Source of the DNA: a virus
Lineage: Duplodnaviria; Caudoviricetes
Strand: one strand, 5' to 3'
Length of the DNA stretch: 25,722 nucleotides
IMG/VR virus record: IMGVR_UViG_3300005764_000076
Coordinates: 1-25,722 of that record
Notes under the pieces: model-generated
The model's database searches: none
Seen by the model: only the letters and a program-made list of their open reading frames with translations
Told to the model about the DNA's origin: nothing
Shown: one piece after another, positions 8,846-25,589 of the stretch
Layout of the letters: the number at the start of each line of letters is the position of its first letter
Numbering within the stretch: position 1 is the stretch's first letter
Position numbers and translations under genes: made by a program

Positions 8846-9031
8846 CTAGTCCCTTTCGTGATAGTGGTCTAGGTATGTCTGGTGGAGTCTATGATCGGCC
8901 TCGTGCTCTCCCTTGTTGACGTACCGGAGTAGAGCGTGACGCTTGGCGACGTGCTTGCGTAGCCACTCGGCCGTCTGACCGAACGGATCGGCTAGCCATA
9001 CGCCTTCCGGCTCCGGTATTTTCCGTGACAC
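8846..9031 (-). CDS. hypothetical protein (61 aa) overlapping the AAA ATPase 3' end
   Basis: GTG preceded by AAAGGCGAGGCGG; stop 3 nt before the SSB start; 143-nt overlap lowers confidence. Confidence 0.4.
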   Translation of the reverse strand: MSRKIPEPEGVWLADPFGQTAEWLRKHVAKRHALLRYVNKGEHEADHRLHQTYLDHYHERD

Positions 9032-9902
9032 CCGCCTCGCCTTTCTTGAGGGAATTCTCGATTGCCTCGATCATCCGCGCCATGGCGAAATAATCGCCTT
9101 CCTCTACATCCCACGTCTTGCCTAGCGCGGAATAGCGGTCTTTAGCCCACCATGGTGGACGTGGCTGGCAAAGGGCTCGCCTTATTACATCGCCAGTCAT
9201 ATCCCGCGATTCCCGCGCTACCGCGTAGTATATACCTACGGAGAATTGAGAGGAAATGGCGTCTGATATCTCGCCTTTCTTACCGAGTAGCAGCGGGATG
9301 ATCCGTTCCTCGCCTTCCGCGTCATCGGCGGTCATTGATGTTGTAATGAATATCGTGTTAGCCGGCATGGCGATAATCCGGCTAGCCCACCGCTTGAAAC
9401 CGTTCTGATACTTCTGGTGGTTCTGGACGGCCGGAATGTCTAGGTCACGAGCCGGATTGATCCGGTTCTCCGTCGCCAGGATCCAGCGCATGTACATTTC
9501 CTGCATAACCGTGCCGGAATCGATAACGAGCCAGTCCCCGTGAACCAGGTTCATTTCAGCCCACGTAACGACCTTTACGGCATGCGGCCAGCTCTCGCAG
9601 CGGATAAGCTCTGCCTGAGAGCCGACTGAGCGAGGGCTCGCAATTCCCTCGACCTCCGTCGAAAGGAAGACAACCCTACGGTCGCCGTTCGCGGCTCCGC
9701 CAGCGAGCATTGTCTTGCCGTGCCCGGACGGCCCGTGAAGAATGATGTTGATCGGGGCATTAGTGTGAGAAGTCGCGAGATCCTCGATCACGATCTCAAC
9801 ATCTTCCTCGACCATCGCGGCCGGAGCTTCCTTGATCTGCTTAGCAGTCTGGCGCGCGGCACGCGCTTTTGTTCCCCTGAGTGGTCTCGCTGCTGGTGGC
9901 AT
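8889..9902 (-). CDS. AAA-family ATPase (AAA_24/Sak4-like recombination protein)
   Basis: Walker A HGPSGHGKT, Walker B LVIDS, WAKDR motif; sits between the Cas4-like nuclease and SSB. Confidence 0.85.
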   Translation of the reverse strand: MPPAARPLRGTKARAARQTAKQIKEAPAAMVEEDVEIVIEDLATSHTNAPINIILHGPSGHGKTMLAGGAANGDRRVVFLSTEVEGIASPRSVGSQAELIRCESWPHAVKVVTWAEMNLVHGDWLVIDSGTVMQEMYMRWILATENRINPARDLDIPAVQNHQKYQNGFKRWASRIIAMPANTIFITTSMTADDAEGEERIIPLLLGKKGEISDAISSQFSVGIYYAVARESRDMTGDVIRRALCQPRPPWWAKDRYSALGKTWDVEEGDYFAMARMIEAIENSLKKGEAGVTENTGAGRRMASRSVRSDGRVATQARRQASRSTPVRQQGRARGRS

Positions 9903-10879
9903 TATGCTGACTTCCTCATATCCTCGTATGGATCGATCTGGACGTAATTGCCCTTTAGCACCGACTTATAGGAATCGGAACCGTGCTCGTGAAGGACGCA
10001 TGGCCCCCAGAACGGGCAGCGCGGGCAGTCCTTTGTAGGCGTCTTGGTTGCCGGGATGGTACCGTCACGGACGGCATTCATGACCGCTACCTCATCCGAG
10101 ATCCGCTCCAGCTGAGTCTTCTGCTCGCCTCGCGTACGGTAGACCGGATCTGGGCGCACGAACATTGGCGGTGGCTGTTTCTTTGATACGGAGCCGTCCT
10201 TGTTAAGGCACAGGCCCTGCTCGTTACGCGGCCTCTCGTCAGGCATCGCCTTCCGGAGGAAGTTGTAAATGATGCCAGCGATTTCCTCGCCTTCCTTTAG
10301 GACTCCCTTGGCGCGGAGTACCTGAGAGGCAACGGCCCAGTATGAGCCGCCTTGATCGTCAAGCTCAAGATAAGCCGTTACGATCTGGGCGGCTGTCTTA
10401 TGCTCGACTAGGTATATCCGGCCATCCGCGAGATTCCGCAGGACACCATCCCACCGCGAACGGAATACAGCAACAGCCTTCCCGTTCCGGTTAATCCGGA
10501 CGCTGAAAGGCTGCTCGACTGATATGATATGCCATTGAGGATCACGGCCATAGAAATCGACGTACTCCTCAAGCATCGCCTCGCCTAGCTCACTCGCATC
10601 CTCCCATACGCCGGAGTCGTACGTCTCATCAAGGTACGTCTTCGCATAGGCAACCTCATCGCCTACCCACTTATGCCAGGTATCGGCCGGATGGGGACCT
10701 CTCCGCTTCCCGCGTAGATACCACTTCGCTAGGGCCTCGTGAATCCCGATACCGAACCAGAGCGCATCCGCCTGGACGTGGCGCGGCCGGTAGCCATAGC
10801 GGTACTCCTGGAGCCAGCGCCACGCACATCGCTTGAACGTCGCGCGCTCTGACGTCCGGAGAATAGGGACCTCAGCCAT
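9902..10879 (-). CDS. Cas4/RecB-like PD-(D/E)XK exonuclease
   Basis: S..TFKRC, FGIGIHEAL, VEQPF, RWDG..YLVEHKTA, Q..Y, C-terminal CPRCPFWGPC. Confidence 0.88.
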   Translation of the reverse strand: MAEVPILRTSERATFKRCAWRWLQEYRYGYRPRHVQADALWFGIGIHEALAKWYLRGKRRGPHPADTWHKWVGDEVAYAKTYLDETYDSGVWEDASELGEAMLEEYVDFYGRDPQWHIISVEQPFSVRINRNGKAVAVFRSRWDGVLRNLADGRIYLVEHKTAAQIVTAYLELDDQGGSYWAVASQVLRAKGVLKEGEEIAGIIYNFLRKAMPDERPRNEQGLCLNKDGSVSKKQPPPMFVRPDPVYRTRGEQKTQLERISDEVAVMNAVRDGTIPATKTPTKDCPRCPFWGPCVLHEHGSDSYKSVLKGNYVQIDPYEDMRKSA

Positions 10880-11023
10880 CGCCTCGCCTTCCGCTTACCT
10901 TGCCTTTACCCTCAGGGCTCCGTCCGGGAGCCGGGGCCATTTAAGCCACCGGACGGAACGCTCAGGATACCCCATAATGGGGCCAGGCCCGGCCACTGAC
11001 GGGACAGCAACCGGGCCTGGGTC

Positions 11024-11437
11024 CTAGTAGGGATCGGCTCCACCGGCACCGGCAGAAGCCGCCTGGCGGCCTCGCCCGCCACGCCGGCCAGCCGGAGCGG
11101 TACCGGCCTTGGCAGCGGGCTTGCCACGCCCACGGCCGCGAGCGGGAGCGGGAGCGGCAGGCTCCGGCTCCGGGGCCGGAGTCCGCGCCGCGCGCCGTGC
11201 CGTGCGCTGGGCGATGTTGAAGTCGGACTTCTGGAAGTGCGGGTAGAGGCTGGAGCCGAGCACCAGGAGCCGGTCGATGGGAACGTCTTCCAGCTTGGCC
11301 ACGTTGTCCTCGAACCAGGTGATGTAGTCGGTCATCGTGTCGGAGATGTCCTTGGTGAGATAGAGCTGGTAATCGACCTCACCATTCTGCGGCTCCGGAG
11401 CCGGAGCGGCCTGCCTGCGGCCTCGTGCTGGAGGCAT
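11024..11437 (-). CDS. hypothetical protein with small helical core and Arg/Ala/Pro-rich disordered ends
   Basis: Strong SD (GGGGAGG) before ATG 11437; the frame is also open up to ATG 11740, so the start is uncertain. Confidence 0.7.
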   Translation of the reverse strand: MPPARGRRQAAPAPEPQNGEVDYQLYLTKDISDTMTDYITWFEDNVAKLEDVPIDRLLVLGSSLYPHFQKSDFNIAQRTARRAARTPAPEPEPAAPAPARGRGRGKPAAKAGTAPAGRRGGRGRQAASAGAGGADPY

Positions 11438-11727
11438 TTTCCTCCCCATCCTTTCGTGTGTAACATTAGCCTTACTAGGAATATACCGCGCTGGGGCTGC
11501 TTTCGCTACCCTATTCCTATGCGTATTTCCGGTATGATCCTCCAGGCTAAACCGGGACAGCCCATGATACCGGACTGTTACGTATCCGTCATCAGTTTTC
11601 CATTCCTTTGACGGACGTTTCCTATCCCGCGCCGTAATGGGCAGGATGGTCTCACGGATAGCGGACTCCGCGAACCACTCACGGAGAGCCGCGATGATCT
11701 CCGGTACATTCGACCTCCGGGGAACGG

Positions 11728-12015
11728 CTACATCAGCCATGGCGCTCTCCCGGCAAGATAGGCAAGGGCATCCCCTTTAGGAAGCGTCCGGTTACGCATC
11801 CGGCGCATCATATCCTCGAAAGCGAGGCACCCATCCATCCGCCAGCACCCCTGCCATCCGGTACGGCTCTTGTACTGACGGAGCAGCTGGCGCATTCCGG
11901 GCAGGTTCTGCGCGTTAATGTTAAACTCGCCCGGGACGGGGGCCGTTTTGCGCGCCGCTGCCCGCTTTCCGGGAGCAGGCTCACCCGCACGCGCTGCCGC
12001 AGTATGCGCAATCAT
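11728..12015 (-). CDS. hypothetical protein (95 aa)
   Basis: ATGA overlap with 12012..12299. Confidence 0.5.
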   Translation of the reverse strand: MIAHTAAARAGEPAPGKRAAARKTAPVPGEFNINAQNLPGMRQLLRQYKSRTGWQGCWRMDGCLAFEDMMRRMRNRTLPKGDALAYLAGRAPWLM

Positions 12016-12091
12016 CGCACGGGCACGGGCACCGGCACTCGCAATACGGGCAGCGCCCGCCGAGGTGCAGCCAGTTCAATATGCGCCTCAT
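11981..12091 (-). CDS. nested Cys-rich peptide (36 aa), metallothionein-like composition
   Basis: AAGGAGGAG SD before ATG 12091; MRRILNWLHLGGRCPYCECRCPCPCDDCAYCGSACG. Confidence 0.45.
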   Translation of the reverse strand: MRRILNWLHLGGRCPYCECRCPCPCDDCAYCGSACG

Positions 12092-12299
12092 ACGCTCCTC
12101 CTTCCTTAGATCGCCGGCTTCCCGCCGCGTCCGCGATAGCCTCATACCAGAGGTTATCCTTAGCGCATTGATGGCATACAGATAGCCCCGTAGGATCGTA
12201 CGCAAAGCCATGCGCGCAGACCCGCGTATCGCCTGGATCGATATGACCGCGAATCCCGAACGGCTCGAACGGGCCGGAATCGTAATGGTTCATAGTCAT
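12012..12299 (-). CDS. hypothetical protein, possible zinc finger
   Basis: AAAGGAAG SD, ATGA overlap with the helicase stop; CAHG..CHQC. Confidence 0.55.
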   Translation of the reverse strand: MTMNHYDSGPFEPFGIRGHIDPGDTRVCAHGFAYDPTGLSVCHQCAKDNLWYEAIADAAGSRRSKEGGAYEAHIELAAPRRALPVLRVPVPVPVR

Positions 12300-14191
12300 G
12301 CCGCTTCCTTTCCTGCTATTGCTAGCTCCGAGAGCTTACGCGGACTCGACTTGGCGACTACCGCGCGCTGCTCGTCTGTTAGGGAGGCCATCCACTCATC
12401 GACAGTACCGACCGAAACAAGCCGGTAGACCGTAACCTGGTGAATCCGGGATACCCGGTGAATCCGGGAGATCAGCTGCTCATCCCAGTCGCTGATCCAT
12501 GGTAGATCGATCTCAACCATCTCATCGGCCGCATCGAGGGTAATCGACTCGCCTCCGGCCTTCCGGTTGATAATGACTACCCGAAGCGAGTCATTTGGGT
12601 CCTGGAACCGCTCGACAAGCTCAAGCCGCTTCCGGTCGGAAGTCGCGCCGGTCAGGGTCAGGACCTCCACGTCGCATTCCTTCCGGAGGACATCCGCAAC
12701 TAGCTCAACAATCTCGCTGAACTCGCTCGCGATCACAACCTTGGCCCCGGTGTCCTCGCGCTCCTGAATGAATTCGGTGATCCATTCGATCTTGTTGGAC
12801 GGGAGAGCCGGGATGACTGAACGTCCCTCTCCGAGACGGCCGGAGGCGTTGGCGAACTGCCGGAGGCGGGTGATCTCCGCGAGTACCCCGGTAGCCGTTA
12901 TCTTCCCGCCCTCAAGGTGGGCCTCCGCATCGGCCTCCATCTCCCAGTAGAGCTTGGCCTGCTCCGGATCCATTTCGAGCTGGACATAGCAAGGGCTCTC
13001 AGGGTCATCCGGATCGATAGGCGTTCCGGCGTAGGCGATGGGCGGGAGGTCCGGAGCTGCATCAGCCTTGGTCCGCTTCAGGTAATACGGCCGCAGCATC
13101 AGGTCCCAGATACCGGCATCGAGCGGCTCAAGGACCTTTGCCCCACCGCCGACAATCTTGCCGTACTTGCCATCCTCGACTCCGAAGTGGGTTTCCGCCC
13201 AGCGCCAGTACGAGCTGAACCGGTCGGGCCGGAGCCAGTTCAGAGTGCCCCAGCCTTTCTCGACCTTAGACCGGAACGGAGTCCCACTCATCGCGATAGC
13301 GAGCCCGCCATCTACAAGCCGCTTCCGGAGCTGCATCGCGCCGAAACGCTGCTGCGTGATCCGCTTGCTCTGAACGTTCGCGGTAGAGGCGAGTAGGTTA
13401 TGCGACTCGTCGAAAATGATCGCGTCCCACTCCTGCTCGGTAAGGAACGGCCACTGCGGCTCCGCATGAATAACGGCCTTCCCGTTCGCGCCTACCGTCT
13501 CGACCCGCTTTGCCCGGACCATCTCGATGTTGATAATAAGCATCTTCGGGCCGTCGCACACCATGTAGTCATACATAACGGCTAGCCGCTCCGTCCGCGA
13601 GCCCTGGGCCACGAACGTCTTAATGCCAGGAGCCCACCGGGCCGTCTCCCGCTCCCACACCGCACGGGTAGCGGTACGCCGGCAGGCCACGAGGATTCGC
13701 TGCGAGCCGGATTGGATAAGAGCAGCTAGGCCCTGAAGCGTCTTGCCCAGGCCTGGGTCATCGCCCAAGATGACGTTCCGGCCGGCAAGGATGAAGCCGG
13801 TACCACTAATCTGGTACCGGCGATTCTGAAGAGCGGCATAGAGAGCCGGAGCCTCAAGCTCCACGCGAGACAAGTCAACGCCGGTGATCGCTTCCTCGCG
13901 GAGCGTTTCTAGGCTCCGCTCACGGCTGACCTCCGTCTGGGCCCAGTGCGCGAGGGCGGGCATTACGGTCAGGCCATCGCCAAACACGCTCCGGAAGGCC
14001 CGGCACGTATCCATCGAGAGCGGGTAGACCCAGCCCTTGAACACATTCGGCGTGACCGTCTTGTCCCAGTCCGCGCGGGCTCCGGGCACCCTCCGCGCCC
14101 ACTTCGGGCCGGAGCCGTTCGCATAGTCGATACGCGCCAGGATCTTCCGGCCGTCCGTCGTAATCGCTGCCTTCATCGTCGCCTTCCCCAT
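12296..14191 (-). CDS. SNF2-family DNA helicase
   Basis: LGDDPGLGKT, IIFDESH, MSGTP, LRQFAN, KVVIAS, AGGESITL, QLISRIHRVS; alternative start at 14176. Confidence 0.92.
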   Translation of the reverse strand: MGKATMKAAITTDGRKILARIDYANGSGPKWARRVPGARADWDKTVTPNVFKGWVYPLSMDTCRAFRSVFGDGLTVMPALAHWAQTEVSRERSLETLREEAITGVDLSRVELEAPALYAALQNRRYQISGTGFILAGRNVILGDDPGLGKTLQGLAALIQSGSQRILVACRRTATRAVWERETARWAPGIKTFVAQGSRTERLAVMYDYMVCDGPKMLIINIEMVRAKRVETVGANGKAVIHAEPQWPFLTEQEWDAIIFDESHNLLASTANVQSKRITQQRFGAMQLRKRLVDGGLAIAMSGTPFRSKVEKGWGTLNWLRPDRFSSYWRWAETHFGVEDGKYGKIVGGGAKVLEPLDAGIWDLMLRPYYLKRTKADAAPDLPPIAYAGTPIDPDDPESPCYVQLEMDPEQAKLYWEMEADAEAHLEGGKITATGVLAEITRLRQFANASGRLGEGRSVIPALPSNKIEWITEFIQEREDTGAKVVIASEFSEIVELVADVLRKECDVEVLTLTGATSDRKRLELVERFQDPNDSLRVVIINRKAGGESITLDAADEMVEIDLPWISDWDEQLISRIHRVSRIHQVTVYRLVSVGTVDEWMASLTDEQRAVVAKSSPRKLSELAIAGKEAA

Positions 14192-14209
14192 CGTCGCCTT
14201 ACGGCCCCA

Positions 14210-14238
14210 ATCCTACCCCAGCCTGCGCCGGAAGTCTA
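14210..14238 (-). promoter_or_regulatory. putative sigma70-type promoter for the helicase operon
   Basis: TAGACT-17 bp-TAGGAT, with GGGG immediately before the -10. Confidence 0.55.
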
Positions 14239-14295
14239 ATCGAGATGCAAGGCCCAGAGAGCGATTCTCCGGCTCCGGGCTCCGGAGCTACCGGC

Positions 14296-15138
14296 CTAGG
14301 CCCGTAATGCGCTCCTGGAGCCGCTCTGCGCCGTTCCTGGGCCGGTTCCGGCCCATCGGCCTCCGTGGATCGCAGAACGCTCGCGCCAGTCCGGGATGTA
14401 GTCATCGAGCATCTTCTGCCATGCCATCCGGAGCCGCTTATCCGGAGGATTCGTGTAGATGGGCCAGCGCTTGTGGATCAGCTCCAGGCACTCCCATTCC
14501 GCCTGGGTACGATCCTCCGGCTCCCGGAACCGCGTGTTGATCCCTCCGGGAGCATAGCGGGCTCCGATCGTAGCGCACTCGACGTCGCAATGGACCAGCC
14601 ACGGATAGCCGCGAGCTATCCCGTTCCGGGCAAGCTCCGCATCCTCTCCGGCCGTATGGAGCTTGCTATCGAAATTGCCTACCTCGATGGCCGCCCGGAC
14701 GTTAAGGCCAAATAGCTGGAATCCCCAGCCTCCGGGGCAGAGGATTACGCCGTGGTTCCGCGAGACGGCTCCACCGGTGAAGAAGTCGTGAATCGGCCGT
14801 ACGGCTCCGATTCCAAGGACACCGGGCCTCGCGGCCTCCGTAAGCAGGGGCCAGGCTTCCGTTGTCGGCCGCATATCATCATCACTCATGATGATGGATG
14901 GAAGCTGGGACTGGCTTGCATGGGATACGCAGAAACGCCTCGCGGCTCCGATCCCGCTTCCACGCGCCGCAAGGACCTGGACACGATCCCTCCAGCCCAT
15001 TTCCTCCCGGAGGTCCCGGTGCTGCGGGAATTCCGACCGGTCTACCACGAGACGTACCTGAATGCCCTGCGCGAGCCAGGCCGGTACGATCCGCTTCAGA
15101 TTGTCGTATCGGCCCATAGTCGGAATGTAGACGGTCAC
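14296..15138 (-). CDS. GT-A glycosyltransferase, TET-associated (TAGT/GREB1-like) type
   Basis: VYIPTMGR, GIGAARRF, IIMSDDD (DxD), GED.EL and GG motifs characteristic of phage TAGT-like enzymes. Confidence 0.78.
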   Translation of the reverse strand: MTVYIPTMGRYDNLKRIVPAWLAQGIQVRLVVDRSEFPQHRDLREEMGWRDRVQVLAARGSGIGAARRFCVSHASQSQLPSIIMSDDDMRPTTEAWPLLTEAARPGVLGIGAVRPIHDFFTGGAVSRNHGVILCPGGWGFQLFGLNVRAAIEVGNFDSKLHTAGEDAELARNGIARGYPWLVHCDVECATIGARYAPGGINTRFREPEDRTQAEWECLELIHKRWPIYTNPPDKRLRMAWQKMLDDYIPDWRERSAIHGGRWAGTGPGTAQSGSRSALRA

Positions 15139-15296
15139 GGCTTCCGCCAGGCTTTCTTAGTCCAGCGCTCTACCGGGAAGCCCGGATAGTTCACGACCAT
15201 GATCGATGTCGGAAGGACGATAAGCCGCTTGGCGTCGCCTCCTGCGGCCGTGAGAGCGACCTCGCGCGTGCCATCGTTTACGATTTTGCCTTTCAT
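15135..15296 (-). CDS. hypothetical protein (53 aa)
   Basis: AGGAGG SD; MKGKIVNDGTREVALTAAGGDAKRL...; GTGA overlap with the glycosyltransferase; not in the ORF track. Confidence 0.65.
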   Translation of the reverse strand: MKGKIVNDGTREVALTAAGGDAKRLIVLPTSIMVVNYPGFPVERWTKKAWRKP

Positions 15297-15313
15297 TGTT
15301 CCTCCTGTGTAGT

Positions 15314-15340
15314 GGACCGGGCTCTACCGGAGCCCGGTCC
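15314..15340. terminator. intergenic hairpin
   Basis: GGACCGGGCTC-5 nt-GAGCCCGGTCC, perfect 11-bp stem, no U tract. Confidence 0.5.
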
Positions 15341-15348
15341 CGTTCTGC

Positions 15349-15456
15349 TTACTGCCCGTCGCGCCAGGAATCGGCCTGTGAATCCCGGAGCATCTTTGCC
15401 TCCCAGCTATCCGCGCTAGTCGGGCCTGCACCGTTCGGGTTGCCTTTCCGGTTCAT
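15349..15456 (-). CDS. small hypothetical protein (35 aa)
   Basis: GGAGGTG SD; MNRKGNPNGAGPTSADSWEAKMLRDSQADSWRDGQ. Confidence 0.5.
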   Translation of the reverse strand: MNRKGNPNGAGPTSADSWEAKMLRDSQADSWRDGQ

Positions 15457-16239: not shown

Positions 16240-16618
16240 TGCTTCCGCCTTTCGTCGTAACCGATTCTACTCCATCGAATTTGCCCCATATGCCGTTACG
16301 CGGAACCGGGGTACATTCCGGGCAGTACTCGCGGAAATGACCGCGCCTCTTGAGACGCCGTTCTAGGGCCTTCCCTCCGGGAGTGGTCCTTGCGACCGTG
16401 AACGCGATACCGCGCCGGTGAAACTCTGCTACGATCGGTACACCGCTCCGGCCGTTCGCGTGGTCCGTGAGACGGCTCTCGCTCCAGTACGATCCCACGT
16501 AGTGCTGCGCATACATCCTGGGACGCGAAAGGTCGCCTATCGGCTCCGCAAAATGGAGCAGATAGACGACCTTCGTCCGCGAGTCCCTAGGCACGCGCGC
16601 CCCAGCAATCCGGGCCAT
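16226..16618 (-). CDS. GIY-YIG-like nuclease; start uncertain (16594, 16618 or 16642)
   Basis: VVYLLHF..HYVG..RL..H..G..ALERRLK..CPEC. Confidence 0.65.
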   Translation of the reverse strand: MARIAGARVPRDSRTKVVYLLHFAEPIGDLSRPRMYAQHYVGSYWSESRLTDHANGRSGVPIVAEFHRRGIAFTVARTTPGGKALERRLKRRGHFREYCPECTPVPRNGIWGKFDGVESVTTKGGSNGTH

Positions 16619-17207
16619 AACCGCGCGAGCGGCTAAGCTCATCGGTGAGGTGCCGGTTACAGTTCCGGCAGGCCCCAAGCTCATCCGCGTACCGCATCCC
16701 ACAGACCTCGATACCCTCGAACAGGATCGCGGAGAGAGCCGCGTGCCGCGTGGCACCGCGCACCGGAGCCTCCGGCTTCCCGCCGATGACCCGCTTGACG
16801 AATATCCGCCCGGCCCACTTGCCCTCCGTGGGAGCGTCCACCCGCCAGAAATCGTAGTCGTCGTTGCCGGTAAGGCTCGCCGTCGCGTAGTGGCCGGCCG
16901 GGATTCCCTTGAAGTCTTCCCGGAAGCTCACGGCCGGAGCCGGAGTAGCCGGAACCTCAGAGCACTGACCATCGAGGTGGAACACGTCCCACTTCCCGCT
17001 CGCGTTCCGCTCGATACGGCCTTCCTGCTCACCCACGTAGTGCCCGCACTTCACGCAGTTCCCGCCGAACTTGTTCGACCGGACGGTCACCATCGTCGCC
17101 GGAGGGTTCAGGACCATCGTGCTCGGGAGCAGCTGCTCCACCGCGTAGCACTCGCGGACTTCCGCAACAGTCTCGTGCTCGTGGCCCTTCCCACATCGGA
17201 TCGCCAT
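16587..17207 (-). CDS. phage protein with C-terminal DUF6011-like zinc motif
   Basis: Start moved to MAIRCGK (17207); CRNCNRHLTDELSRSRGYGPDCW; IPAGHYA..FWRV..GKWAGRIFV. Confidence 0.75.
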   Translation of the reverse strand: MAIRCGKGHEHETVAEVRECYAVEQLLPSTMVLNPPATMVTVRSNKFGGNCVKCGHYVGEQEGRIERNASGKWDVFHLDGQCSEVPATPAPAVSFREDFKGIPAGHYATASLTGNDDYDFWRVDAPTEGKWAGRIFVKRVIGGKPEAPVRGATRHAALSAILFEGIEVCGMRYADELGACRNCNRHLTDELSRSRGYGPDCWGARA

Positions 17208-17257
17208 TTTCTCGCCTTTCGCCTTCCGCCGGATCTTCTCTCCGGCCGCTTGGTACA

Positions 17258-17287
17258 AGCTTACCCCATGCAAGCCCTTGCGCGCTA
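17258..17287 (-). promoter_or_regulatory. putative promoter
   Basis: TAGCGC-18 bp-TAAGCT with TGGGG before the -10, same style as the other promoters. Confidence 0.4.
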
Positions 17288-18495: not shown

Positions 18496-18508
18496 GTCGC
18501 CTTCCGCC

Positions 18509-18751
18509 TTACTTCCGCTCGATAACTATGTCTAGTACTGGGCCATCAACGTACCAGTAACCGTGATACCCAGAATCCGGGCTGTACCACCGGTTCTCCC
18601 CGGACTCATCATCCACTATGATATGAGCCGGGTTGTCGAGCCCGTCAATCGTCAGGGCAATATACTTCCGAATAGCCCGGACAGTAACGGTATCGGCATC
18701 ATCCGGCTCCCTGTCATCAGGGCCTAGATCGTAATGCATAAGGTCAATCAT
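18509..18751 (-). CDS. hypothetical protein (80 aa)
   Basis: Fills the gap; AAGGCGAGGCA upstream. Confidence 0.6.
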   Translation of the reverse strand: MIDLMHYDLGPDDREPDDADTVTVRAIRKYIALTIDGLDNPAHIIVDDESGENRWYSPDSGYHGYWYVDGPVLDIVIERK

Positions 18752-18771
18752 TGCCTCGCCTTCCTACCCCA

Positions 18772-18801
18772 AGTATACCCGCTCTGTGCGTCTCCGGTCT
18801 A
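18772..18801 (-). promoter_or_regulatory. putative promoter
   Basis: TAGACC-18 bp-TATACT. Confidence 0.55.
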
Positions 18802-19068: not shown

Positions 19069-19497
19069 CTACCAACCGGCCCATTCGATAGCCGGAGTCG
19101 TGTCTTCGGTAATCCCGTACTTGCCCGGCTCCGCGAGACGGTACCGGTAGTTAGCAAGCTCGTACGCAAGCTTCCGCTCCGTAAGCTTTCTGGTCTTCAG
19201 GAGCGTCCGGGAGACGGAGCCTCCAAGAAACCGCGTAGTCGCGCTGAAGCCTGCCTGCGGCCGTACGGAAGTCCATCCGGCCCACAGCGAATCTCCGAAA
19301 GCCCCAAGCCATCCGTCACGGACTGAGACATAAGCCATCAGCCGCTCCGGGAGCATTACGCTGCCGTCGCTGTAGAGATCGGCCGGTAGCCGCTCGATAC
19401 GAATCTCAGCCATCAGGCCGTACTTCCGCGCCTCTCGCGCGTACGCCTCCGCACGCACGATCGCGAGCGGCTTCTCATCGTCGCGCTTACGTCCCAT
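19069..19497 (-). CDS. hypothetical protein (142 aa)
   Basis: Has its own promoter repeat and start motif. Confidence 0.7.
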   Translation of the reverse strand: MGRKRDDEKPLAIVRAEAYAREARKYGLMAEIRIERLPADLYSDGSVMLPERLMAYVSVRDGWLGAFGDSLWAGWTSVRPQAGFSATTRFLGGSVSRTLLKTRKLTERKLAYELANYRYRLAEPGKYGITEDTTPAIEWAGW

Positions 19498-19513
19498 TGT
19501 CGCCTCCGTCGCC

Positions 19514-19536
19514 TTGCCTACGGCAAGTCTACTCCA
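19514..19536 (-). promoter_or_regulatory. 23-bp promoter repeat, copy 1
   Basis: TGGAGTAGACTTGCCGTAGGCAA on the minus strand, identical to 20980-21002; contains -10 TAGACT, with TTTGCG upstream. Confidence 0.75.
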
Positions 19537-19559
19537 CGCCTGCCCAACCGCAAAACGTT

Positions 19560-20012
19560 TTAGGCAGTAACTTCAAAAATCTCGTACCGGAACGGAGGGA
19601 ACATCGGCCGGAACTGCCGGCCGTTCATAACCGACCATAGGTGGGCCTTCCGGCTCTTCTGCCCTCCGACATAAAACACGCGGCCGGAGGAACGGGAGGC
19701 CCGGAGCGCATCCTCAAGCTTAAACCGGTAGCTCATCCGGGTAACCGCGTAGCCGTACGACTCGAATACGGCCTTGGTAATGTCGCGCCTCGTGCCATGA
19801 CCGGGCCGGAACCCGGCCGCGAGGAAGGCCGTAGAGGCTTCCTCGTACGTCGCGCCGGTGATCTCCATGAACGTCTGCACGGCGCAATCGCTCTTGTACC
19901 AGACAGCTCCGGCCTCATCGCGCCGGAGCTTAGAGGAAGCTAGGCAGTCGCCGCAGTACGCGAGGTAATGCGCCTTGCACTGCTCTCCGGCCTCCCATGC
20001 CTCGATAGTCAC
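19560..20012 (-). CDS. hypothetical protein, possible papain/C39-like fold
   Basis: GTG start overlapping the upstream TGA; DCAVQTFMEITGATYEEA..GT..HLWSVMNG supplies a candidate Cys/His pair. Confidence 0.6.
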   Translation of the reverse strand: MTIEAWEAGEQCKAHYLAYCGDCLASSKLRRDEAGAVWYKSDCAVQTFMEITGATYEEASTAFLAAGFRPGHGTRRDITKAVFESYGYAVTRMSYRFKLEDALRASRSSGRVFYVGGQKSRKAHLWSVMNGRQFRPMFPPFRYEIFEVTA

Positions 20013-20227
20013 GGAAGGCTCCGGTAGATCCGGATGACCTTCCGGAGGATGGAGCGTCCGGGCTCCCGGCACGCTTCCCACTCCGGAGCGGAATCGTCCG
20101 ACACCAGGAAGTCAAGAATCTGCGCCGCCTCGACCGGGCCGACCGTACCGTTACCGGTCCCACGAGCGGCTGCATTCACGATAATCGTGATCAGTTCCTC
20201 GCGGAGTACCGCCTTGCTCATCGCCAT
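20009..20227 (-). CDS. hypothetical protein (72 aa)
   Basis: Preceded by the promoter repeat and GAAAGGCGAGACG. Confidence 0.6.
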   Translation of the reverse strand: MAMSKAVLREELITIIVNAAARGTGNGTVGPVEAAQILDFLVSDDSAPEWEACREPGRSILRKVIRIYRSLP

Positions 20228-20242
20228 CGTCTCGCCTTTCGT

Positions 20243-20265
20243 TCGCCTAGGGCAAGTCTACGCCA
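20243..20265 (-). promoter_or_regulatory. 23-bp promoter repeat, degenerate copy (20/23)
   Basis: TGGCGTAGACTTGCCCTAGGCGA. Confidence 0.65.
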
Positions 20266-20274
20266 TGCCACCCA

Positions 20275-20318
20275 GAAAACAAAATGGAAGGCTCCCTGGA
20301 TGTGACAGGGAGCCTTCC
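20275..20318 (-). terminator. intrinsic terminator
   Basis: 13-bp perfect stem GGAAGGCTCCCTG/CAGGGAGCCTTCC followed by ATTTTGTTTTC on the minus strand. Confidence 0.8.
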
Positions 20319-20410
20319 TCCGAGACTTAGGACGGGCTTGCCCTTGGGAAGCACACCCGCCCTGCCATGGTTGTGCTACCGTCTAGGCCCCACCCCCTTC
20401 CCGCTCCGCT
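20280..20410 (-). ncRNA. candidate small RNA (about 130 nt)
   Basis: TAGGAT -10 at 20415-20420, no SD-led ORF, ends at a strong terminator. Confidence 0.3.
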
Positions 20411-20427
20411 AGCTATCCTACCGAAAG

Positions 20428-20459
20428 CCGGAGGCCCCAGGTTTCCCCAGGGCCTCCGG
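20428..20459. terminator. hairpin after 20474..20959
   Basis: CCGGAGGCCC-12 nt-GGGCCTCCGG followed by CTTTC on the minus strand. Confidence 0.5.
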
Positions 20460-20473
20460 ACGCCTCGCGCCTA

Positions 20474-20959
20474 CTAGTCGCGCATCCCGAACATGACCGC
20501 TACCCGCTCCGACTGCTGAACCATCATCGCGTGAAGCTCCGGCTCCGCGTACATCGAGTCATTGAGCTGATTCTCGATACCGGCCCACAGGGCGGCACGA
20601 GCCCTCGCGCGGAGAGCGTAACTCTTCCCACGGCTCATCTTCGGAGCGGGCTCCGGAGCCGTCTCCGGGCCTCCGTCCGGGAGAGCATCGCAGCACGGCT
20701 GGAAGTTCATCTCAGCCATCACGTCCATCGAGCCCTCGCCGTGCTCTGCCTCGTACTCTTCCAGGATTCCGTTGTCCCAGTAGTCGTACGCGAACGCATA
20801 CCGAGTCGGCCAATCCGTCTGCCCGAACTCAACCTGGTCATGCCGGCGTACCGTCGTGCCCTTGTAGCCCTTCCGGAGCCGCTCACGCCCGGCATCCGCG
20901 CATCCCCACTTGTGGATCTCGACTTCGCCATCGCTCGTGTTGAACGCTACCAGTTTCAT
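20474..20959 (-). CDS. hypothetical protein (161 aa)
   Basis: Has its own promoter repeat and start motif; EIHKWGCAD..FQPC. Confidence 0.75.
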   Translation of the reverse strand: MKLVAFNTSDGEVEIHKWGCADAGRERLRKGYKGTTVRRHDQVEFGQTDWPTRYAFAYDYWDNGILEEYEAEHGEGSMDVMAEMNFQPCCDALPDGGPETAPEPAPKMSRGKSYALRARARAALWAGIENQLNDSMYAEPELHAMMVQQSERVAVMFGMRD

Positions 20960-20979
20960 GTCCGCCTCGCCTTTTTCGA

Positions 20980-21002
20980 TTGCCTACGGCAAGTCTACTC
21001 CA
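20980..21002 (-). promoter_or_regulatory. 23-bp promoter repeat, copy 2
   Basis: Identical to 19514-19536. Confidence 0.75.
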
Positions 21003-21027
21003 GGATGGCAGGATCGCAAAATCTTTC

Positions 21028-21417
21028 TCAGGCTGGAGTCTCCGGCTCCGTCTCCGGCGATGGCTCCGGAGGCTTCCGGACCACGAGGCTGGAGCCGTCC
21101 GGGCTGAACGCTAGCTCTACCCCGGAGCCCGCAAGCCAGTCAGCATCCTTCGCCATCTCATCCCGGTCGGACTCCCCAAGCACGGGCATCGGCTGCGTTC
21201 CGGCCGCAAGCTTCCGTCGCCTCCGGTACCAGCGAATAGAGCTAGCGATGAACGCGAGGGAGAAGATCACGGCCGCCAGGAGCCCGATTGCGAGCAGCAT
21301 CGTCAGGAGAGTGTCGATGATAATGCGCCGGTAAACATAGACAATGGCGCAGATACCAACAACGAGGATTAGCACCGATAGCGCCGGTGACATCTGAATC
21401 CTATCATACTTCCTCAT
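21028..21417 (-). CDS. membrane protein with two predicted TM segments; last gene of the FtsK operon
   Basis: Two long hydrophobic stretches, then RRRRK; AGGAG SD overlapping the FtsK 3' end. Confidence 0.75.
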   Translation of the reverse strand: MRKYDRIQMSPALSVLILVVGICAIVYVYRRIIIDTLLTMLLAIGLLAAVIFSLAFIASSIRWYRRRRKLAAGTQPMPVLGESDRDEMAKDADWLAGSGVELAFSPDGSSLVVRKPPEPSPETEPETPA

Positions 21418-21419
21418 GC

Positions 21420-23081
21420 TTATCTCCTGTTCTCAAGAGCGTACTCGCGGAGCCAGTCTTCATCGTCATAGAAACCCTGGACCCAGGTCCGCTTATTTCC
21501 ACGGCACATAAGGATCTTACCCGGTCCCTCTATACATTCAGCCGCAGGATTACCGACCGTCCGGGCAAACTGCCCCGGAAGGAACCCGGCTGCCCCGAAT
21601 ACCGCAAAAGCCATCTTTAGGCTCTCGCCTCCCATTGCCTGATCCCGGAGGTCCTGGAACATCCATTCCCCGAAGATCCGCGCCTGCCTACCCTGCCGGA
21701 GTAGCGGGCCAACGCATTCACCCCATATGGAGGGAGAGGCCGATGTCTCGCCCAGGACATTCTTCCAGTAGCTCTTATAGCACGCACCGAGATCGTTTCC
21801 CTCATCGACCAGAAGCCAGATATCGTGAAAGTCACGTTCTGACATACGGCCCTCCCGGATAGCCGCATACCGGTCCCGCATAATGCCGGCAAGCGTATGA
21901 GGCACCCTCCAGATTGCCTCCATATCCGACTGCGGGTTATCGAATACATAGACTCGCGGAATCCCCTTTAGATGGGTAAAGGAAACCTGCTTGGTATCGA
22001 CGCAGTACAGCTCAGCCTCCGGATCGTTATGGCAGATCTGCGCAGCCTTAACGAGGAAGCCCATTGACTTCCCAGTACCGGAATTCGCGAACCGGCAGTG
22101 CCACGGAGCGTCACCGTTGTGATTACTCACGTACATCGTCCGGTCGGCTACCACACCAACGCCAAACTCGCGCGGAGCGAGAGCCCGCATAGCCGGTACA
22201 TAATCGCGGAACCGTACCCTATCCGGCAGGGAATGCTCGACTATGGGGACCCATGTCAACGTCCGTGGCGTTACAGTAGTGGCCCAGGAGAACCGGACCT
22301 TGCCGATTGTATGGGCCTCGATTAGCTCCTGGACCGGTTCCCGCTCTTTAGCAAGGGCAGCGAATGAATCCGGGAGGATAAGCGAGCCTTTCTCCGGCGA
22401 GAGCCGGAGCCGCGAGGAAATCTCAGCCTTGGAGCAGCTCATCCGCGAGGCTAGCAGGCCGGCCAGGACGTCATGCGGTACGCCTTCCAGCTGCGGAGTC
22501 TTCTCCTGAGTCAGGACTGGAGTCGCGCCAGCAGTAAGCTCATCCGCGCTGAATACCGTTTTTGCCCGCGCGGTCATAGCCATGGCCGGCCTATGGACCG
22601 GGCTGAGCTTCCGGATCTTCTCCCGCTTCCGGTAGACCGCGAGCGAAATCCGCGCCAGGATCAGGAGCACGATAAATATTGTAACGGCCCTGACGGTGGC
22701 GGCCGGATCAATAGCCATACAGCTAAGCAGGACCAGGATCACGAACACGATCAGGTTATTCCGGACGGCCCGGTAACCCCGCGAGCGGGGCGTGAAGTAG
22801 ACAATCGTGCCCTCTGCCGTCGCGCGGCTACTCCCTCCGGCCGTACGCCGGATGCTCTTCTCATCCCCAAAGCTCTTCTCAGGATGGATATGCGCGCCGG
22901 TATGGAAGCGCAGAAGTACCTTGTGGATCTTGCCGGGCCGTCCGGGATGGCGCCAGCCTAGGTACTCCTGCGCATAGCCGTTGATAAGGTACCCCATCGC
23001 CAGGAAGACGTAGAGCCCGAACCAGAACGCGAACGGCACCCACCATTCGACGTGGAGATGCCGCAAGACGATATCGGTCAT
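21420..23081 (-). CDS. membrane-anchored FtsK/SpoIIIE (TraB-like) ATPase
   Basis: About three N-terminal TM segments; Walker A ANSGTGKS, VDTK, M..RY, Walker B LLVDE, LLRQGRQARI..MFQ; no C-terminal winged helix. Confidence 0.8.
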   Translation of the reverse strand: MTDIVLRHLHVEWWVPFAFWFGLYVFLAMGYLINGYAQEYLGWRHPGRPGKIHKVLLRFHTGAHIHPEKSFGDEKSIRRTAGGSSRATAEGTIVYFTPRSRGYRAVRNNLIVFVILVLLSCMAIDPAATVRAVTIFIVLLILARISLAVYRKREKIRKLSPVHRPAMAMTARAKTVFSADELTAGATPVLTQEKTPQLEGVPHDVLAGLLASRMSCSKAEISSRLRLSPEKGSLILPDSFAALAKEREPVQELIEAHTIGKVRFSWATTVTPRTLTWVPIVEHSLPDRVRFRDYVPAMRALAPREFGVGVVADRTMYVSNHNGDAPWHCRFANSGTGKSMGFLVKAAQICHNDPEAELYCVDTKQVSFTHLKGIPRVYVFDNPQSDMEAIWRVPHTLAGIMRDRYAAIREGRMSERDFHDIWLLVDEGNDLGACYKSYWKNVLGETSASPSIWGECVGPLLRQGRQARIFGEWMFQDLRDQAMGGESLKMAFAVFGAAGFLPGQFARTVGNPAAECIEGPGKILMCRGNKRTWVQGFYDDEDWLREYALENRR

Positions 23082-23938
23082 CAGGCCTCCCGTTCCTCCG
23101 GGAAGACATCATAGTATGCGTCCTGGATGTCCTGGTGAATCCTGCCATGGAGCCCTACCCGGTGGGCGTACTCCGGACGGGCTCTGGCCCATGCCCGCAT
23201 ACGGGCCTTTGGAGAGTGTGTCTGGGCCCATGCCGTGCCTCCGGAACCGGAGGCCGTACGCCGCTCACGGTGCTCCCTGAGGACGCTCTCAGGCTCCACT
23301 ACGGCCGGATCTGCGGCTGGCTCCTGAACGGGCTCCGGGACTATCCGCTCGCGGGTGTTCCTGACCCGGTCGGCCTCGCGCCGGAAGTCACCGACCACAG
23401 TATGCGCAGCAGCCATAAGGGCATCCCTCCGCGCCACGACAATATCCCGGAGCCTCCCCAGAGTCGAGAGCGGGAACAGGAGCCAGGCCATCATGCCAAA
23501 GCTGGGCAGTGGCGAGGGATAGACGGAGCCAGCACGAGCAAGGGCCTTCCGCTTCTCCCAGCGAATGTGGATCTCGTACACGACCATCGCGCCGATTGGG
23601 AGAGCTGCCCACATCACCCAGGAGCCCGGTAGCTCGTGATCGATACGGGCATGGAACGTCTGAAGAAAAGCTGCGGTGAACGCGAATAGCCGGACAACGA
23701 ATTTCGGGAAGCTGCCCGATAGCCCGGCCTGAGCGTAATCGACGGACTTACGCGCAGCGAATAGCGCCACGCCATCGAAACATGTACTGAACGCGATAGC
23801 GATGAACCATGGCGCGCCAAGATACCGGCCGATGTAGTAAAGAGAGTATGCCGAGACGCCTAGAATCGGCACTAGCACCACGAGCCATAGAAAACCTCCC
23901 ACGATAGCCGCGAGGGCTCGCCTTACCGTATCGAGCAT
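23081..23938 (-). CDS. DUF2637-like multi-TM protein with C-terminal Lsr2-like DNA-binding domain
   Basis: Four TM segments with S..SL..A..FDG pattern, then P.FG..AWLLFP..T; tail MRAWARARPEYAHRVGLHGRIHQDIQDAY resembles Lsr2 IRxWA..GRI..AY. Confidence 0.72.
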   Translation of the reverse strand: MLDTVRRALAAIVGGFLWLVVLVPILGVSAYSLYYIGRYLGAPWFIAIAFSTCFDGVALFAARKSVDYAQAGLSGSFPKFVVRLFAFTAAFLQTFHARIDHELPGSWVMWAALPIGAMVVYEIHIRWEKRKALARAGSVYPSPLPSFGMMAWLLFPLSTLGRLRDIVVARRDALMAAAHTVVGDFRREADRVRNTRERIVPEPVQEPAADPAVVEPESVLREHRERRTASGSGGTAWAQTHSPKARMRAWARARPEYAHRVGLHGRIHQDIQDAYYDVFPEEREA

Positions 23939-24070
23939 ATCACTTCCTTTCGCTCATATCGGCCCACTCTATCGAGGATAAGACATCGATAGCGATAGCG
24001 CTATCATCTTCCGCGCTATCGCGGCCACCTAGCGCTTTCGCGCAGGTAGTCACCGATTGTGGCCTGAAAA

Positions 24071-24130
24071 GGAAATTTTCGCGGAAACTTCTATGGAAAT
24101 TTTCGCGGAAATTCTCGCGGAAATTTCTAC
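24071..24130. repeat. five tandem 12-bp direct repeats, consensus GGAAATTTTCGC
   Basis: GGAAATTTTCGC, GGAAACTTCTAT, GGAAATTTTCGC, GGAAATTCTCGC, GGAAATTTCTAC. Confidence 0.9.
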
Positions 24131-24624
24131 AACTTCCCTGCATCCCGGAGGAAGCCGTCAATCACGGCCGGCAGCTCGAATACCAGAGCCCAGTCCTCAT
24201 TCGTGAGCAGCGGCCAGAATGCCGGATTGGCGGCTAGCTCGCCCAGGGCTACAGAGGCCGCCATAACAAGACCATGCGCAGAATGGTCCTCCGGCTCCCG
24301 CCTCCGGTGCTTCCCTGTAGGCCCGTCGCCTCCGCTCTCCGGATCTCCCCGGACCTCGACGGAGTTGTATATCTCATTGAAGTTGGGCAGGCCTCCGTCC
24401 GCATCAATCCCGCCAAGCTTCCGGCCTACCAGGTCCCAGCAGTTGTACATGTACCGGACATGAGTATGACTCTTGCCGATCTCCTGCCCCAGCTGACGCC
24501 TCGACTTTCCCTCATTGACTTCCTCCCAGATAAGCTGCGCAGCTATCCAGCGATGGTGGCTCGTGGTCGAGTCATTCCGCTCCGCTATCGCCTCATGCTT
24601 CCTGATTTCCGCTATCCGGTCCAT
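24127..24624 (-). CDS. HTH DNA-binding protein
   Basis: GGAGG SD before ATG 24624; KSRRQLGQEIGKSHTHVRYM is HTH-like. Confidence 0.7.
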   Translation of the reverse strand: MDRIAEIRKHEAIAERNDSTTSHHRWIAAQLIWEEVNEGKSRRQLGQEIGKSHTHVRYMYNCWDLVGRKLGGIDADGGLPNFNEIYNSVEVRGDPESGGDGPTGKHRRREPEDHSAHGLVMAASVALGELAANPAFWPLLTNEDWALVFELPAVIDGFLRDAGKL

Positions 24625-24650
24625 TGTTCCCTCCAGAAACTTTCGTTTCC

Positions 24651-24662
24651 GGTAGGATACCC
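24651..24662. promoter_or_regulatory. candidate bidirectional promoter with overlapping -10 hexamers
   Basis: Plus-strand TAGGAT 24653-24658 (6 nt before ATG 24665) overlaps minus-strand TATCCT 24659-24654. Confidence 0.5.
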
Positions 24663-24664
24663 TC

Positions 24665-25201
24665 ATGACGATTAAAGCGATAGAGACGAAATATGGAGGC
24701 TACCGGTTCCGCTCGCGGCTGGAAGCCCGATGGGCTGTGTTCCTTGATAATGAGGGAATTGAATGGAATTACGAGCCACAGGGCATTGAAGTCGATTCTC
24801 CACGAGGCCGTATCCGGTACCTCCCGGACTTCTGGCTAGGCACCGGCCAGTGGGCTGAGGTCAAGGGATTCCTTGACCTGGACGGGATGCGCCGCCTCCA
24901 TGCCCTCGCCTGCGGTATGACGGTCTGCGGCTCCGGTAGCGATATCGTCATACTCGGCGGCATACCTAGGCCACGGAGTATCCTATGGCCAGTCCAGCTC
25001 CACTACCACGAGCGGCTCTGGGGCCTGCCATGGCGGCCGGAGCCCGGATGCCCGATGGGGAGGCCGCGCGTAGCGGTAGACGCGACATTTGAGATGGCAG
25101 ACCACCTCGTGGCCGGCTTCCCGTTCGGAATCCCAGACTGGGCCATAGACGGCCTTGAGAGAGCCCGTATGGCCCGTTTCGAGTGGGGAGAGTCCGGATG
25201 A
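24665..25201 (+). CDS. PD-(D/E)XK endonuclease-like phage protein
   Basis: FRSRLEARWAVFLD..W.YEP..YLPDFWL..WAEVKG; the only convincing plus-strand gene. Confidence 0.8.
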   Translation: MTIKAIETKYGGYRFRSRLEARWAVFLDNEGIEWNYEPQGIEVDSPRGRIRYLPDFWLGTGQWAEVKGFLDLDGMRRLHALACGMTVCGSGSDIVILGGIPRPRSILWPVQLHYHERLWGLPWRPEPGCPMGRPRVAVDATFEMADHLVAGFPFGIPDWAIDGLERARMARFEWGESG

Positions 25202-25205
25202 CCGT

Positions 25206-25234
25206 GAGCCCGGTAGGACAAGCCTACCGGGCTC
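25206..25234. terminator. hairpin between convergent genes
   Basis: GAGCCCGGTAGG-5 nt-CCTACCGGGCTC, perfect 12-bp stem. Confidence 0.65.
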
Positions 25235-25276
25235 TACAGCCTCCGGCGATGGACCTTGGCCCAGCCGGAAGTCTCT

Positions 25277-25408
25277 CTACACCAAGGCCAGGGCCTGGAA
25301 CCGGAGGAAGATCCGGAGTAGGTGCTGGAAGAGATGGGGCGCATCGCCATCGCAGTGGAACGCGAGCGCGAGAGCCTGAAGAATGAAGTCCCAGACGTAC
25401 TCGATCAT
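25277..25408 (-). CDS. small hydrophobic protein (43 aa)
   Basis: MIEYVWDFILQALALAFH...; preceded by three AAGGC units. Confidence 0.5.
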   Translation of the reverse strand: MIEYVWDFILQALALAFHCDGDAPHLFQHLLRIFLRFQALALV

Positions 25409-25589
25409 TGCTTCGCCTTTCGTCGCCTTGCCTTTGCCGGAGGCTAGCCCGGAGCCTTGCCGTTGATCCGGTCCTTGCCGGTTCGGCCGCTCCGGGCCTA
25501 GTCTCCGCTGGGGATTGCTCCGGGGCTTCCCGCTACCCTGTCCGGGCCCATTCGTCCCGGTCGGTTCGAGCCTCATCCCAAACACAACA

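Follow-up and report, generated by a model that had tools for sequence, protein, structure and literature searches.

The window, the whole 25,722-nt stretch of DNA analysed here (IMG/VR record IMGVR_UViG_3300005764_000076), comes from an uncultured phage whose relatives are likewise known mostly from uncultured contigs. It holds part of the early and replication arm, with nearly all genes on the minus strand. Eleven of these genes carry the motif AAGGCG (the tag) at the ribosome-binding site (RBS), and in relatives of the phage the complement of the tag, usually UCGCCU, lies in the first loop of a predicted two-hairpin RNA. The loop of this RNA probably pairs with the tag and represses the tagged early genes, the copy belonging to the phage of the window being predicted from its relatives.

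In the window, AAGGCG was found at positions -20 to -3 of 11 of the 41 curated minus-strand starts, as compared with 9 of 791 other ATG or GTG codons (Fisher p=1.3e-10); the list of 41 was curated by hand with the motif known to the curator, and conserved genes were checked against homologues. The tagged starts are 25408, 20959, 20227, 19497, 18751, 18495, 17207, 16239, 14176, 10879 and 9031, eight of which were recovered with the tagged start by a gene caller blind to RBSs. The original prediction, which placed the motif at the Shine-Dalgarno (SD) position of about 11 genes, is thus borne out, and all motif strings that it quoted occur at their places on the minus strand. One pair of sites, 14191 and 14176, had been listed together; the tagged start is 14176, where homologues begin, and 14191 marks an upstream tandem copy. 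The prediction was also right that genes 2836, 4215, 11437, 15296, 15456 and 24624 use ordinary GGAGG, and that the tag mostly marks the first gene after a promoter: nine of the 11 tagged genes lie behind a -10-like box (TAGACT, TATACT, TAAGCT, TAGAAT, TAGGAT or TATCCT, the box at 10964-10969 being read by eye), and 18495 and 9031 are internal. The motif occurs 37 times on the minus strand and 4 times on the plus strand. In relatives the tag is GAAAGGCGA, 4-5 nt ahead of the start; a further AGGCGA or AGGCAA often stands ~7 nt past the -10-like box, in repeated hairpin-promoter-leader cassettes.

As judged from crude gene calls, virion genes of the long relatives lie on the strand opposite the early genes. 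Starts with AGGCGA on the early and late strands of eight long genomes number 22/4, 16/2, 14/1, 6/1, 6/0, 4/0, 5/3 and 10/6 (crude filter of open reading frames, ORFs), and one of the late-strand starts belongs to a primase/polymerase gene. Within early coding sequences of the window AGGCGA was observed 24 times against 7.6 expected from synonymous shuffles of 18 long ORFs, and the observed and expected counts in relatives are 27/10.1 (G003), 31/13.7 (G317), 30/6.6 (G001) and 15/6.8 (G006). Late genes are mostly not enriched (G317 6/7.6, G006 6/9.1, G318 8/8.6, G007 14/10.4), the exception being G001 (9/3.5). Neither the mycobacteriophage Onyinye (19/15.8) nor the Nocardia phage P3.1 (8/9.1) is enriched. 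Depletion of GGCGG may add to the coding enrichment.

On the coding strand of the window TCGCCT occurs three times, always inside genes, and the RNA model R1 has no match in the window. In relatives G004 and G006, TCGCCT is present directly behind a -10-like box, 100-130 nt ahead of a gene that is the same in both. The product of the gene downstream is RuvC-like, with 29% identity (E 8e-9) to Onyinye gp87, which is annotated so; in PHROGs its family is of unknown function. Upstream of this ruvC-like gene, 28 distinct relatives carry an element predicted to form a two-hairpin RNA of 75-115 nt behind a promoter. All 11 copies of the discovery set, from 11 distinct phages, form two hairpins when folded singly (z -2.9 to -5.3), and the first loop contains the hexamer (mean unpaired probability 0.66-1.0). 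The hexamer columns are conserved in 11, 11, 11, 11, 10 and 11 of the 11 copies, and the flanking columns mostly in 4-7. In an alignment of seven sequences, from which the tested structure was itself derived, 12 of 23 stem pairs are compensatory, a number reached by none of 500 shuffles, and slid structures give 1-3; covarying stems are also seen in a further alignment, fitted to the model and including weak hits.

Searching with a ruvC profile yielded 31 loci, of which 23 were new and 8 had been used before. With a model built from seven copies the element was found at 12 of the new loci at E<1e-6, at four more weakly and at three by eye and fold, hence at 19 of 23 (17 distinct), and the four without it are the most distant (45-49% identity). 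No element was seen at the distant ruvC loci L178, L179, L189-L192 and L268-L271 (28-49% identity) or in the portions of Onyinye and P3.1 examined; Rfam gave no matches at gathering score in L171, L172, L174, L185 and the window; and a pattern scan for the loop with hairpin 2 returned 38 loci, mostly chance, with no new confirmed copy. Loop 1 reads UCGCCU in 19 of the 28 distinct copies, has one-base variants in three (L176, L256, L261) and changed seeds in six. Several lineages have a further gene inserted after the element and before ruvC, and the SD of the next gene is mostly untagged, which argues that the element is not simply a ruvC leader and that the partners of its loop lie elsewhere. 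At the same place in G001 (L209:5986-6092, plus strand) there is a two-hairpin fold with UCGCCUUUCU on the opposite strand and no promoter seen; this could be a copy in inverted orientation, or else a terminator with an orphan tag behind it.

Loop and tag have changed together. Among six phages with several tagged genes, once rows and columns had been centred, the targets with which each RNA paired furthest were its own (p=0.0014 by Watson-Crick runs, p=0.004 and 0.008 by energies), the p-values being optimistic as the target lists were hand-picked. In a test across 19 genomes using one orthologous 135-aa gene directly behind ruvC, p was 6e-5 to 8e-4, and at most 2e-5 when the inserted gene that captured the leader was used for L245 and L175; some of these genomes are related (L253/L174/L258, L242/L252, L259/L260), so that the p-values overstate independence. 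The automatic loop pick missed the seed in L242 and L249, and both rows were retained. The longest Watson-Crick runs are 7-11 nt in 16 of the 19 genomes and 6 nt in L176, where a loop U forms a G-U pair with the site; the L255 contig lacks the target gene. For the changed loops UAGCCU, CCGACU and CCGGCU, the ribosome site of the neighbouring tagged gene matched in three lineages and not in two. The L249 loop UAGCCUUUC predicted a site GAAAGGCTAG, which was subsequently found, and loops UCCGACUU in L264 and UUCCGGCUU in L245 go with sites AAGTCGGA and AAGCCGGAA, respectively. These matched seed swaps lie on separate branches, and a tree must include three or more changes to account for the variants. 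When a tag and a separate RNA loop have changed in nature so as to compensate each other, this is the comparative signature of base pairing. At the tagged sites of the window, the loop of a relative pairs at -15.4 kcal/mol as compared with -10.0 for the 16S tail, and it is better than the tail by at least 3 kcal/mol at 10 of the 11 tagged starts and at 6 of the 30 untagged ones. Pairing of the loop with the tag is well supported by comparison and considered very likely.

A second such pair may be present in G325, in which the UCGCCU loop is present, yet most early genes share another tag, AAAAGGGGA (12 copies). The one sense-strand complement of this tag in that genome forms the loop of another long hairpin (z -4.7), at the position equivalent to a hairpin at 10983-11020 of the window (minus strand), past the 137-aa gene 11437. 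Most relatives have such a hairpin at the equivalent position, with loops rich in C and U. In the window the loop is short and does not match AGGCGA, and the top of the hairpin, UGUCCC, is complementary, weakly and over 5-6 nt, to GGGAC before genes 8842, 7918 and 7139.

The top cultured matches to the DnaE of the window are mycobacteriophages, namely Onyinye and those of cluster D, and Nocardia phage P3.1 (47-49% identity), which suggests an actinobacterial host. The actinobacterial 16S tail ends CACCUCCUUUCU (four of five fetched loci, the fifth not being rRNA). Five actinobacterial genomes each have 73-154 occurrences of GAAAGG with ATG 6-9 nt downstream, as compared with 25-37 for controls, and the bases after GAAAGG are free. 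CGA follows GAAAGG in 2 of the 150 matches listed from host genomes (hand count), in 13 of 17, 12 of 14 and 8 of 11 phage starts in three relatives, and in 4 of 8 in the window. The original prediction held that the conserved C mismatches the anti-SD, which is true only beyond GAAAGG or AAGG, as this core itself pairs with the actinobacterial tail; the sites at 19497, 20959, 18751 and 10879 also contain GAGG or GGAGG. Its proposal of a second translation-initiation code is overstated, given that tagged starts of the window pair with the normal 16S tail as well as untagged ones do (mean -10.0 and -8.6 kcal/mol, respectively). The tag is better read as a putative regulatory address laid over an ordinary actinobacterial SD core (GAAAGG/AAGG), with CGA as its private part.

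Among the readers that the prediction had offered, the phage RNA with UCGCCUU has strong support from relatives, a protein need not be invoked, and scans for a variant anti-SD found no rRNA match. In the latter case, the 16S rRNA of the host would end CCUCCUUUCU, with UCGCC or CCGCC replacing CCUCC, and the tag would simply be its SD, as might be suggested by GGCGA standing in the same register as GGAGG, 4-5 nt ahead of the start. However, a scan of the GTDB collection, in which many genomes lack the 16S 3' end, gave four matches to the variant tail, none of them in an rRNA gene. GAAAGGCGA-N3-6-ATG occurs at most six times per genome among 301 sampled Actinomycetota genomes (seven of them unpublished, none of which sets the maximum). 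Furthermore, other genes of the phage use GGAGG, and seeds differ between sister phages, which makes a variant anti-SD hardly conceivable. A pattern scan for CGAAAGGCGAG..ATG in viral contigs gave 120 loci, with homology only in those of the clade itself.

The window, G003, G004, L001 and G002/L006 avoid AAGGAG, GAGGAG and TAGGAG on both strands, CAGGAG being allowed; in the window subclade the observed and expected counts over both strands are 1/56.5, 8/84 and 2/27, respectively. The same genomes avoid CCGCGG, GAGCTC, CTCGAG, CCCGGG, GGATCC, GGCGCC and GGCGG. This looks like restriction-site avoidance, differing between lineages. As a cause of the tag it was rejected, as G001 is rich in AAGGAG, GAGGAG and TAGGAG words yet tagged.

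What the sequences show is the tag and where it stands, a conserved RNA fold whose stems covary, a loop complementary to the tag, and loop and tag changing to match; the course of events beyond this is inferred. Transcription of the RNA would start from a dedicated promoter of host type, situated where the early arm begins, and the RNA, being GC-rich and structured, is proposed to accumulate as infection proceeds. At tagged sites the loop would win over the 16S tail, since its pairing takes in the C and the A, which are of no use to the ribosome. Given that the paired stretch would cover the SD and that the loop is stronger than the 16S tail, ribosome occlusion is the simplest outcome, and repression is hence preferred to activation as the probable direction of the effect. 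This would lower expression of the helicase, the exonuclease and the early and host-takeover genes, and leave DnaE, ThyX, virion and host genes unaffected. A stable RNA present from the start of infection would thus act as a delayed brake on early genes. The extra AGGCGA copies inside early genes would be added binding sites, perhaps for decay, and repeats of the promoter-leader cassette likely spread the tag to new genes.

Several points weigh against this reading, besides the hand-picked target lists and the relatedness of the genomes given above. The changed loops of L254 and L247 have no good partner (longest Watson-Crick run 5), and the match in L245 and L175 is to a gene inserted before the orthologue, which itself gives runs of 3 and 4. 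Few genes (4-6) are tagged in G324, G325, G318 and G006, and early coding sequences of G318 are not enriched in AGGCGA (6/6.3). The promoter of the RNA resembles those of its targets, so that the timing rests on accumulation, which is an assumption. Hairpin 2 mostly has no U-tract, and the RNA may therefore be the 5' end of the ruvC message. The RNA locus of the phage itself would lie beyond the end of the contig; by synteny with G004 it is expected ~3.5 kb past 25722, and one public contig extends only 409 nt past that point. Finally, sequence alone fits either direction of the effect.

The loop-tag pairing could instead activate or stabilise messages, for example by shielding a 5' copy from a 5' exonuclease, or act only in cis on the neighbouring gene. 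A second AGGC/AGGA-type copy is located at the likely start site in four of seven window cassettes and in seven of eight in G009, the best-covarying target lies less than 1 kb downstream of the RNA, and ruvC itself is tagged in L171, L172, L185 and L266 and can fold back on the loop; in the portion of the report available, PreS of lambda both represses and activates (10.1101/2024.10.31.621285). However, the SD is covered by the paired region in all cases. Most tagged genes in the window subclade belong to separate terminator-promoter cassettes, out of reach in cis, and the six-phage test includes distant tagged genes. Activation or action in cis only is hence regarded as unlikely, and repression through the loop-tag pairing is preferred.

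The tagged sites and the cassettes in which many of them lie are as follows, all on the minus strand and with promoters inferred from the -10-like boxes.
3-25408, minus strand: early and replication genes, with AGGCGA also enriched within their coding sequences.
25409-25595, minus strand: -10-like box TATACT (25590-25595), ~180-nt leader and tags AAGGCG at 25424-25429 and 25414-25419, before the 43-aa gene 25408.
20960-21026, minus strand: repeated promoter-leader cassette (repeat family D2) with a TAGACT box, AGGCA at the likely start site and a tag at 20968-20973, before gene 20959.
20228-20318, minus strand: terminator-like hairpin (20286-20318), cassette copy and tag at 20233-20238, before gene 20227.
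19498-19560, minus strand: cassette copy with tags, AAGGCG at 19510-19515 and then GGAGGCGA, before gene 19497.
18752-18777, minus strand: TATACT box and tag at 18757-18762, before gene 18751.
18496-18510, minus strand: tandem tags at 18505-18510 and 18498-18503 of the DUF2786 gene 18495, which is internal and has no promoter of its own.
17208-17263, minus strand: TAAGCT box and tandem tags at 17220-17225 and 17213-17218, before the DUF6011 gene 17207.
16240-16269, minus strand: TAGAAT box and tag at 16246-16251 (AAGGCGG form), before gene 16239.
14177-14215, minus strand: TAGGAT box and tandem tags at 14195-14200 and 14180-14185, before the SNF2 helicase gene, start 14176.
10880-10969, minus strand: TATCCT box (10964-10969) and tag at 10885-10890, before the PD-(D/E)XK exonuclease gene 10879.
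9032-9043, minus strand: tag at 9038-9043 of the 61-aa gene 9031, within the 3' tail of the AAA gene.
8846-9031, minus strand: the 61-aa gene, of no known family and without a PHROG match, overlapping the AAA gene.

The orthologue of DUF2786 gene 18495 is tagged in six of the seven relatives listed. The site at 9031 is not a chance in-frame match within the AAA gene, as the 61-aa gene is 52-82% identical in 11 relatives; its product is His-rich, and the overlapped tail of the AAA gene is variable and Arg-rich. The leader at 25409-25590 is GC-rich, structured and partly common to G004, and has no Rfam match. An inverted repeat that flanks the helicase promoter (window 14177-14240; G003 16286-16345; G004 16736-16802) would hide the upstream tag in read-through transcripts of G003 and G004, and is weaker in the window.

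Such cassettes raise the alternative that recombination has homogenised the promoter-leader cassettes, as with the promoter early stem-loops (PeSLs) of T4-like phages, and that the tag travels in them as a neutral passenger, with GAAAGG alone serving translation. A 47-nt cassette is repeated at 19514, 20243 and 20980 and stands before up to eight genes in relatives, the actinobacterial counts given above fit GAAAGG with free following bases, and Onyinye carries a homogenised leader of its own. PeSLs, as far as the available accounts describe them, comprise promoter, stem-loop and SD and recombine (PMC2839356, PMC4122927). Passenger status leaves unexplained, however, the single loop-borne complement and the matched seed swaps, the tags without a cassette (18495, 9031, G001 14633, G003 26602), and the enrichment within coding sequences, which early genes show and late genes mostly do not. 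The cassettes probably explain the spread of the tag rather than its retention, and a purely passive tag is quite improbable. The early leaders of Onyinye (L169:10046, 10135-13996) have CAACAACC..GAAGG in common; a single copy in reverse orientation, in the gap ahead of gene 54, is not exposed in a loop of the fold, and P3.1 (L170:2382) has an intergenic hairpin with a CCUUUC loop.

Slightly less probable still is a phage or host protein that binds AGGCGA on RNA or DNA, in the manner of RegA/RegB or of a stoperator repressor, the copy in the hairpin then being an inverted operator. Tandem copies at variable spacing would suit a protein, as would the early coding enrichment, which is also described for RegB sites in the part of the literature available (PMC3014915), and a candidate might be the 165-aa protein at 24624, whose weak helix-turn-helix-like structural neighbours (TM 0.3-0.43 by query) are below the bar. 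A protein, however, does not need the reverse complement displayed single-stranded; flanks and seeds change complementarily in separate lineages; and the tags favour one strand (37 against 4). Three near-palindromic GGAAATTTTCGCGGAAA repeats (24071-24129, repeat family D7) lie between gene 24624 and gene 23938.

The genes of the window encode a split DnaE, ThyX, an SNF2 helicase, a PD-(D/E)XK exonuclease, an AAA ATPase, an FtsK-like protein and DUF2786 and DUF6011 proteins. Close uncultured relatives are 64-79% identical in the helicase and 67-81% in DnaE, and protein trees place the phage in a clade with RNA-bearing genomes, nearest to G004, the branching inside the clade not being resolved. 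The split of DnaE (2239-3773) separates a PHP domain gene from the catalytic part by a NUMOD3 homing-endonuclease-like gene and a 75-aa gene. A TET-associated glycosyltransferase (14296-15138), an oxidoreductase (7136-7918) and a 223-aa gene without a family near ThyX (5566-6237) suggest DNA modification.

If the proposed pairing is correct, it would provide RNA-only shutdown of early genes in a lytic phage, a job known from T4 proteins, and the recodable loop-tag pair would be a compact translation switch for actinobacteria. The literature search, with subscription papers largely outside its coverage, found no paper on the AAGGCG motif or naming an RNA reader of start-associated sequences (SASs). 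The role of these has been open since 2011 and, in the parts of the accounts available, was still called unknown in 2024-2025 (PMC11373665, PMC12699233).

The original prediction considered the motif analogous to, but different from, mycobacteriophage SASs. The sequence does differ, but the likeness is closer than was allowed: the tag has one orientation near starts, belongs to non-structural genes, has a non-pairing extension beyond the SD core and is rare in the Actinomycetota genomes sampled. It is an SAS of the published kind, and what is new are the 28 predicted RNA copies with matched seed swaps. According to the available parts of the cluster K accounts (Pope et al. 2011, PMC3203893; also PMC11373665, PMC12699233), the SAS and extended SAS (ESAS) of that cluster are likewise asymmetric and in one orientation, and lie in the RBS of non-structural genes, 3-7 nt from the start, which is mostly ATG, and the SAS likewise joins an SD core to conserved bases unable to pair with 16S, often behind a promoter. 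Unlike the 13-bp consensus GGGATAGGAGCCC, the tag GAAAGGCGA is shorter and often tandem, and its reverse copy takes the form of a conserved, RNA-like element covarying with the tag. No 17-bp ESAS inverted repeats were seen by eye in the cassettes; the GGGATAGGAGCCC consensus itself was not scanned for in the window.

A lone reverse-orientation SAS is described in four K1 phages, where the part of the account available left open whether its reader is RNA or protein (PMC3203893). In Anaya (L239:31871-31883) and Adephagia (L240:30683-30695), it lies in intergenic gaps of ~385 and ~430 nt, respectively, and forms the 10-nt loop of a predicted sense-strand hairpin, with z of -3.9 in Adephagia and only -1.1 in Anaya (81-nt windows). 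We tentatively propose, at somewhat less than even confidence, that SASs serve phages generally as addresses for a hairpin RNA, made by the phage and directed against the RBS, that silences a gene class by outcompeting the 16S tail, with tag and loop recodable together, two channels possible (G325), and the reverse SAS of Anaya and Adephagia being the same kind of RNA. The arrangement in the cultured phage Adephagia makes this idea testable. The cluster EF Microbacterium SAS GGGAAAGGACCCC has the same GAAAGG core with a conserved non-pairing extension, also in an actinophage, but the extension is another one and the EF account, in the part available, proposes no reader (PMC7302621).

The PeSL type of layout, a repeated stem-loop, promoter, SD and start before small variable genes, is also found in the window cassettes; in the accessible parts of the T4-like accounts a private tag and antisense reader are not described, and the promoter here is of actinobacterial type (PMC2839356, PMC4122927). 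T4 RegB and RegA likely offer a parallel in silencing early messages via an SD-region motif, with extra coding sites and possible self-control, but these are proteins, and RegB uses canonical GGAG, as opposed to the base-pairing RNA and private tag predicted here (PMC3014915, as far as available).

Features of trans-acting small RNAs are present in the element, namely a conserved covarying structure, an unpaired seed and compensatory complementarity to targets, with L254 and L247 as exceptions. Hfq is not known from actinobacteria. In the available part of their description, PreS of lambda and, as cited there, VpdS are similarly phage small RNAs with an unpaired seed complementary to a motif common to many targets; PreS, however, is bound by Hfq and acts mainly on host mRNAs, whereas the targets predicted here are the phage's own tagged RBSs (10.1101/2024.10.31.621285).

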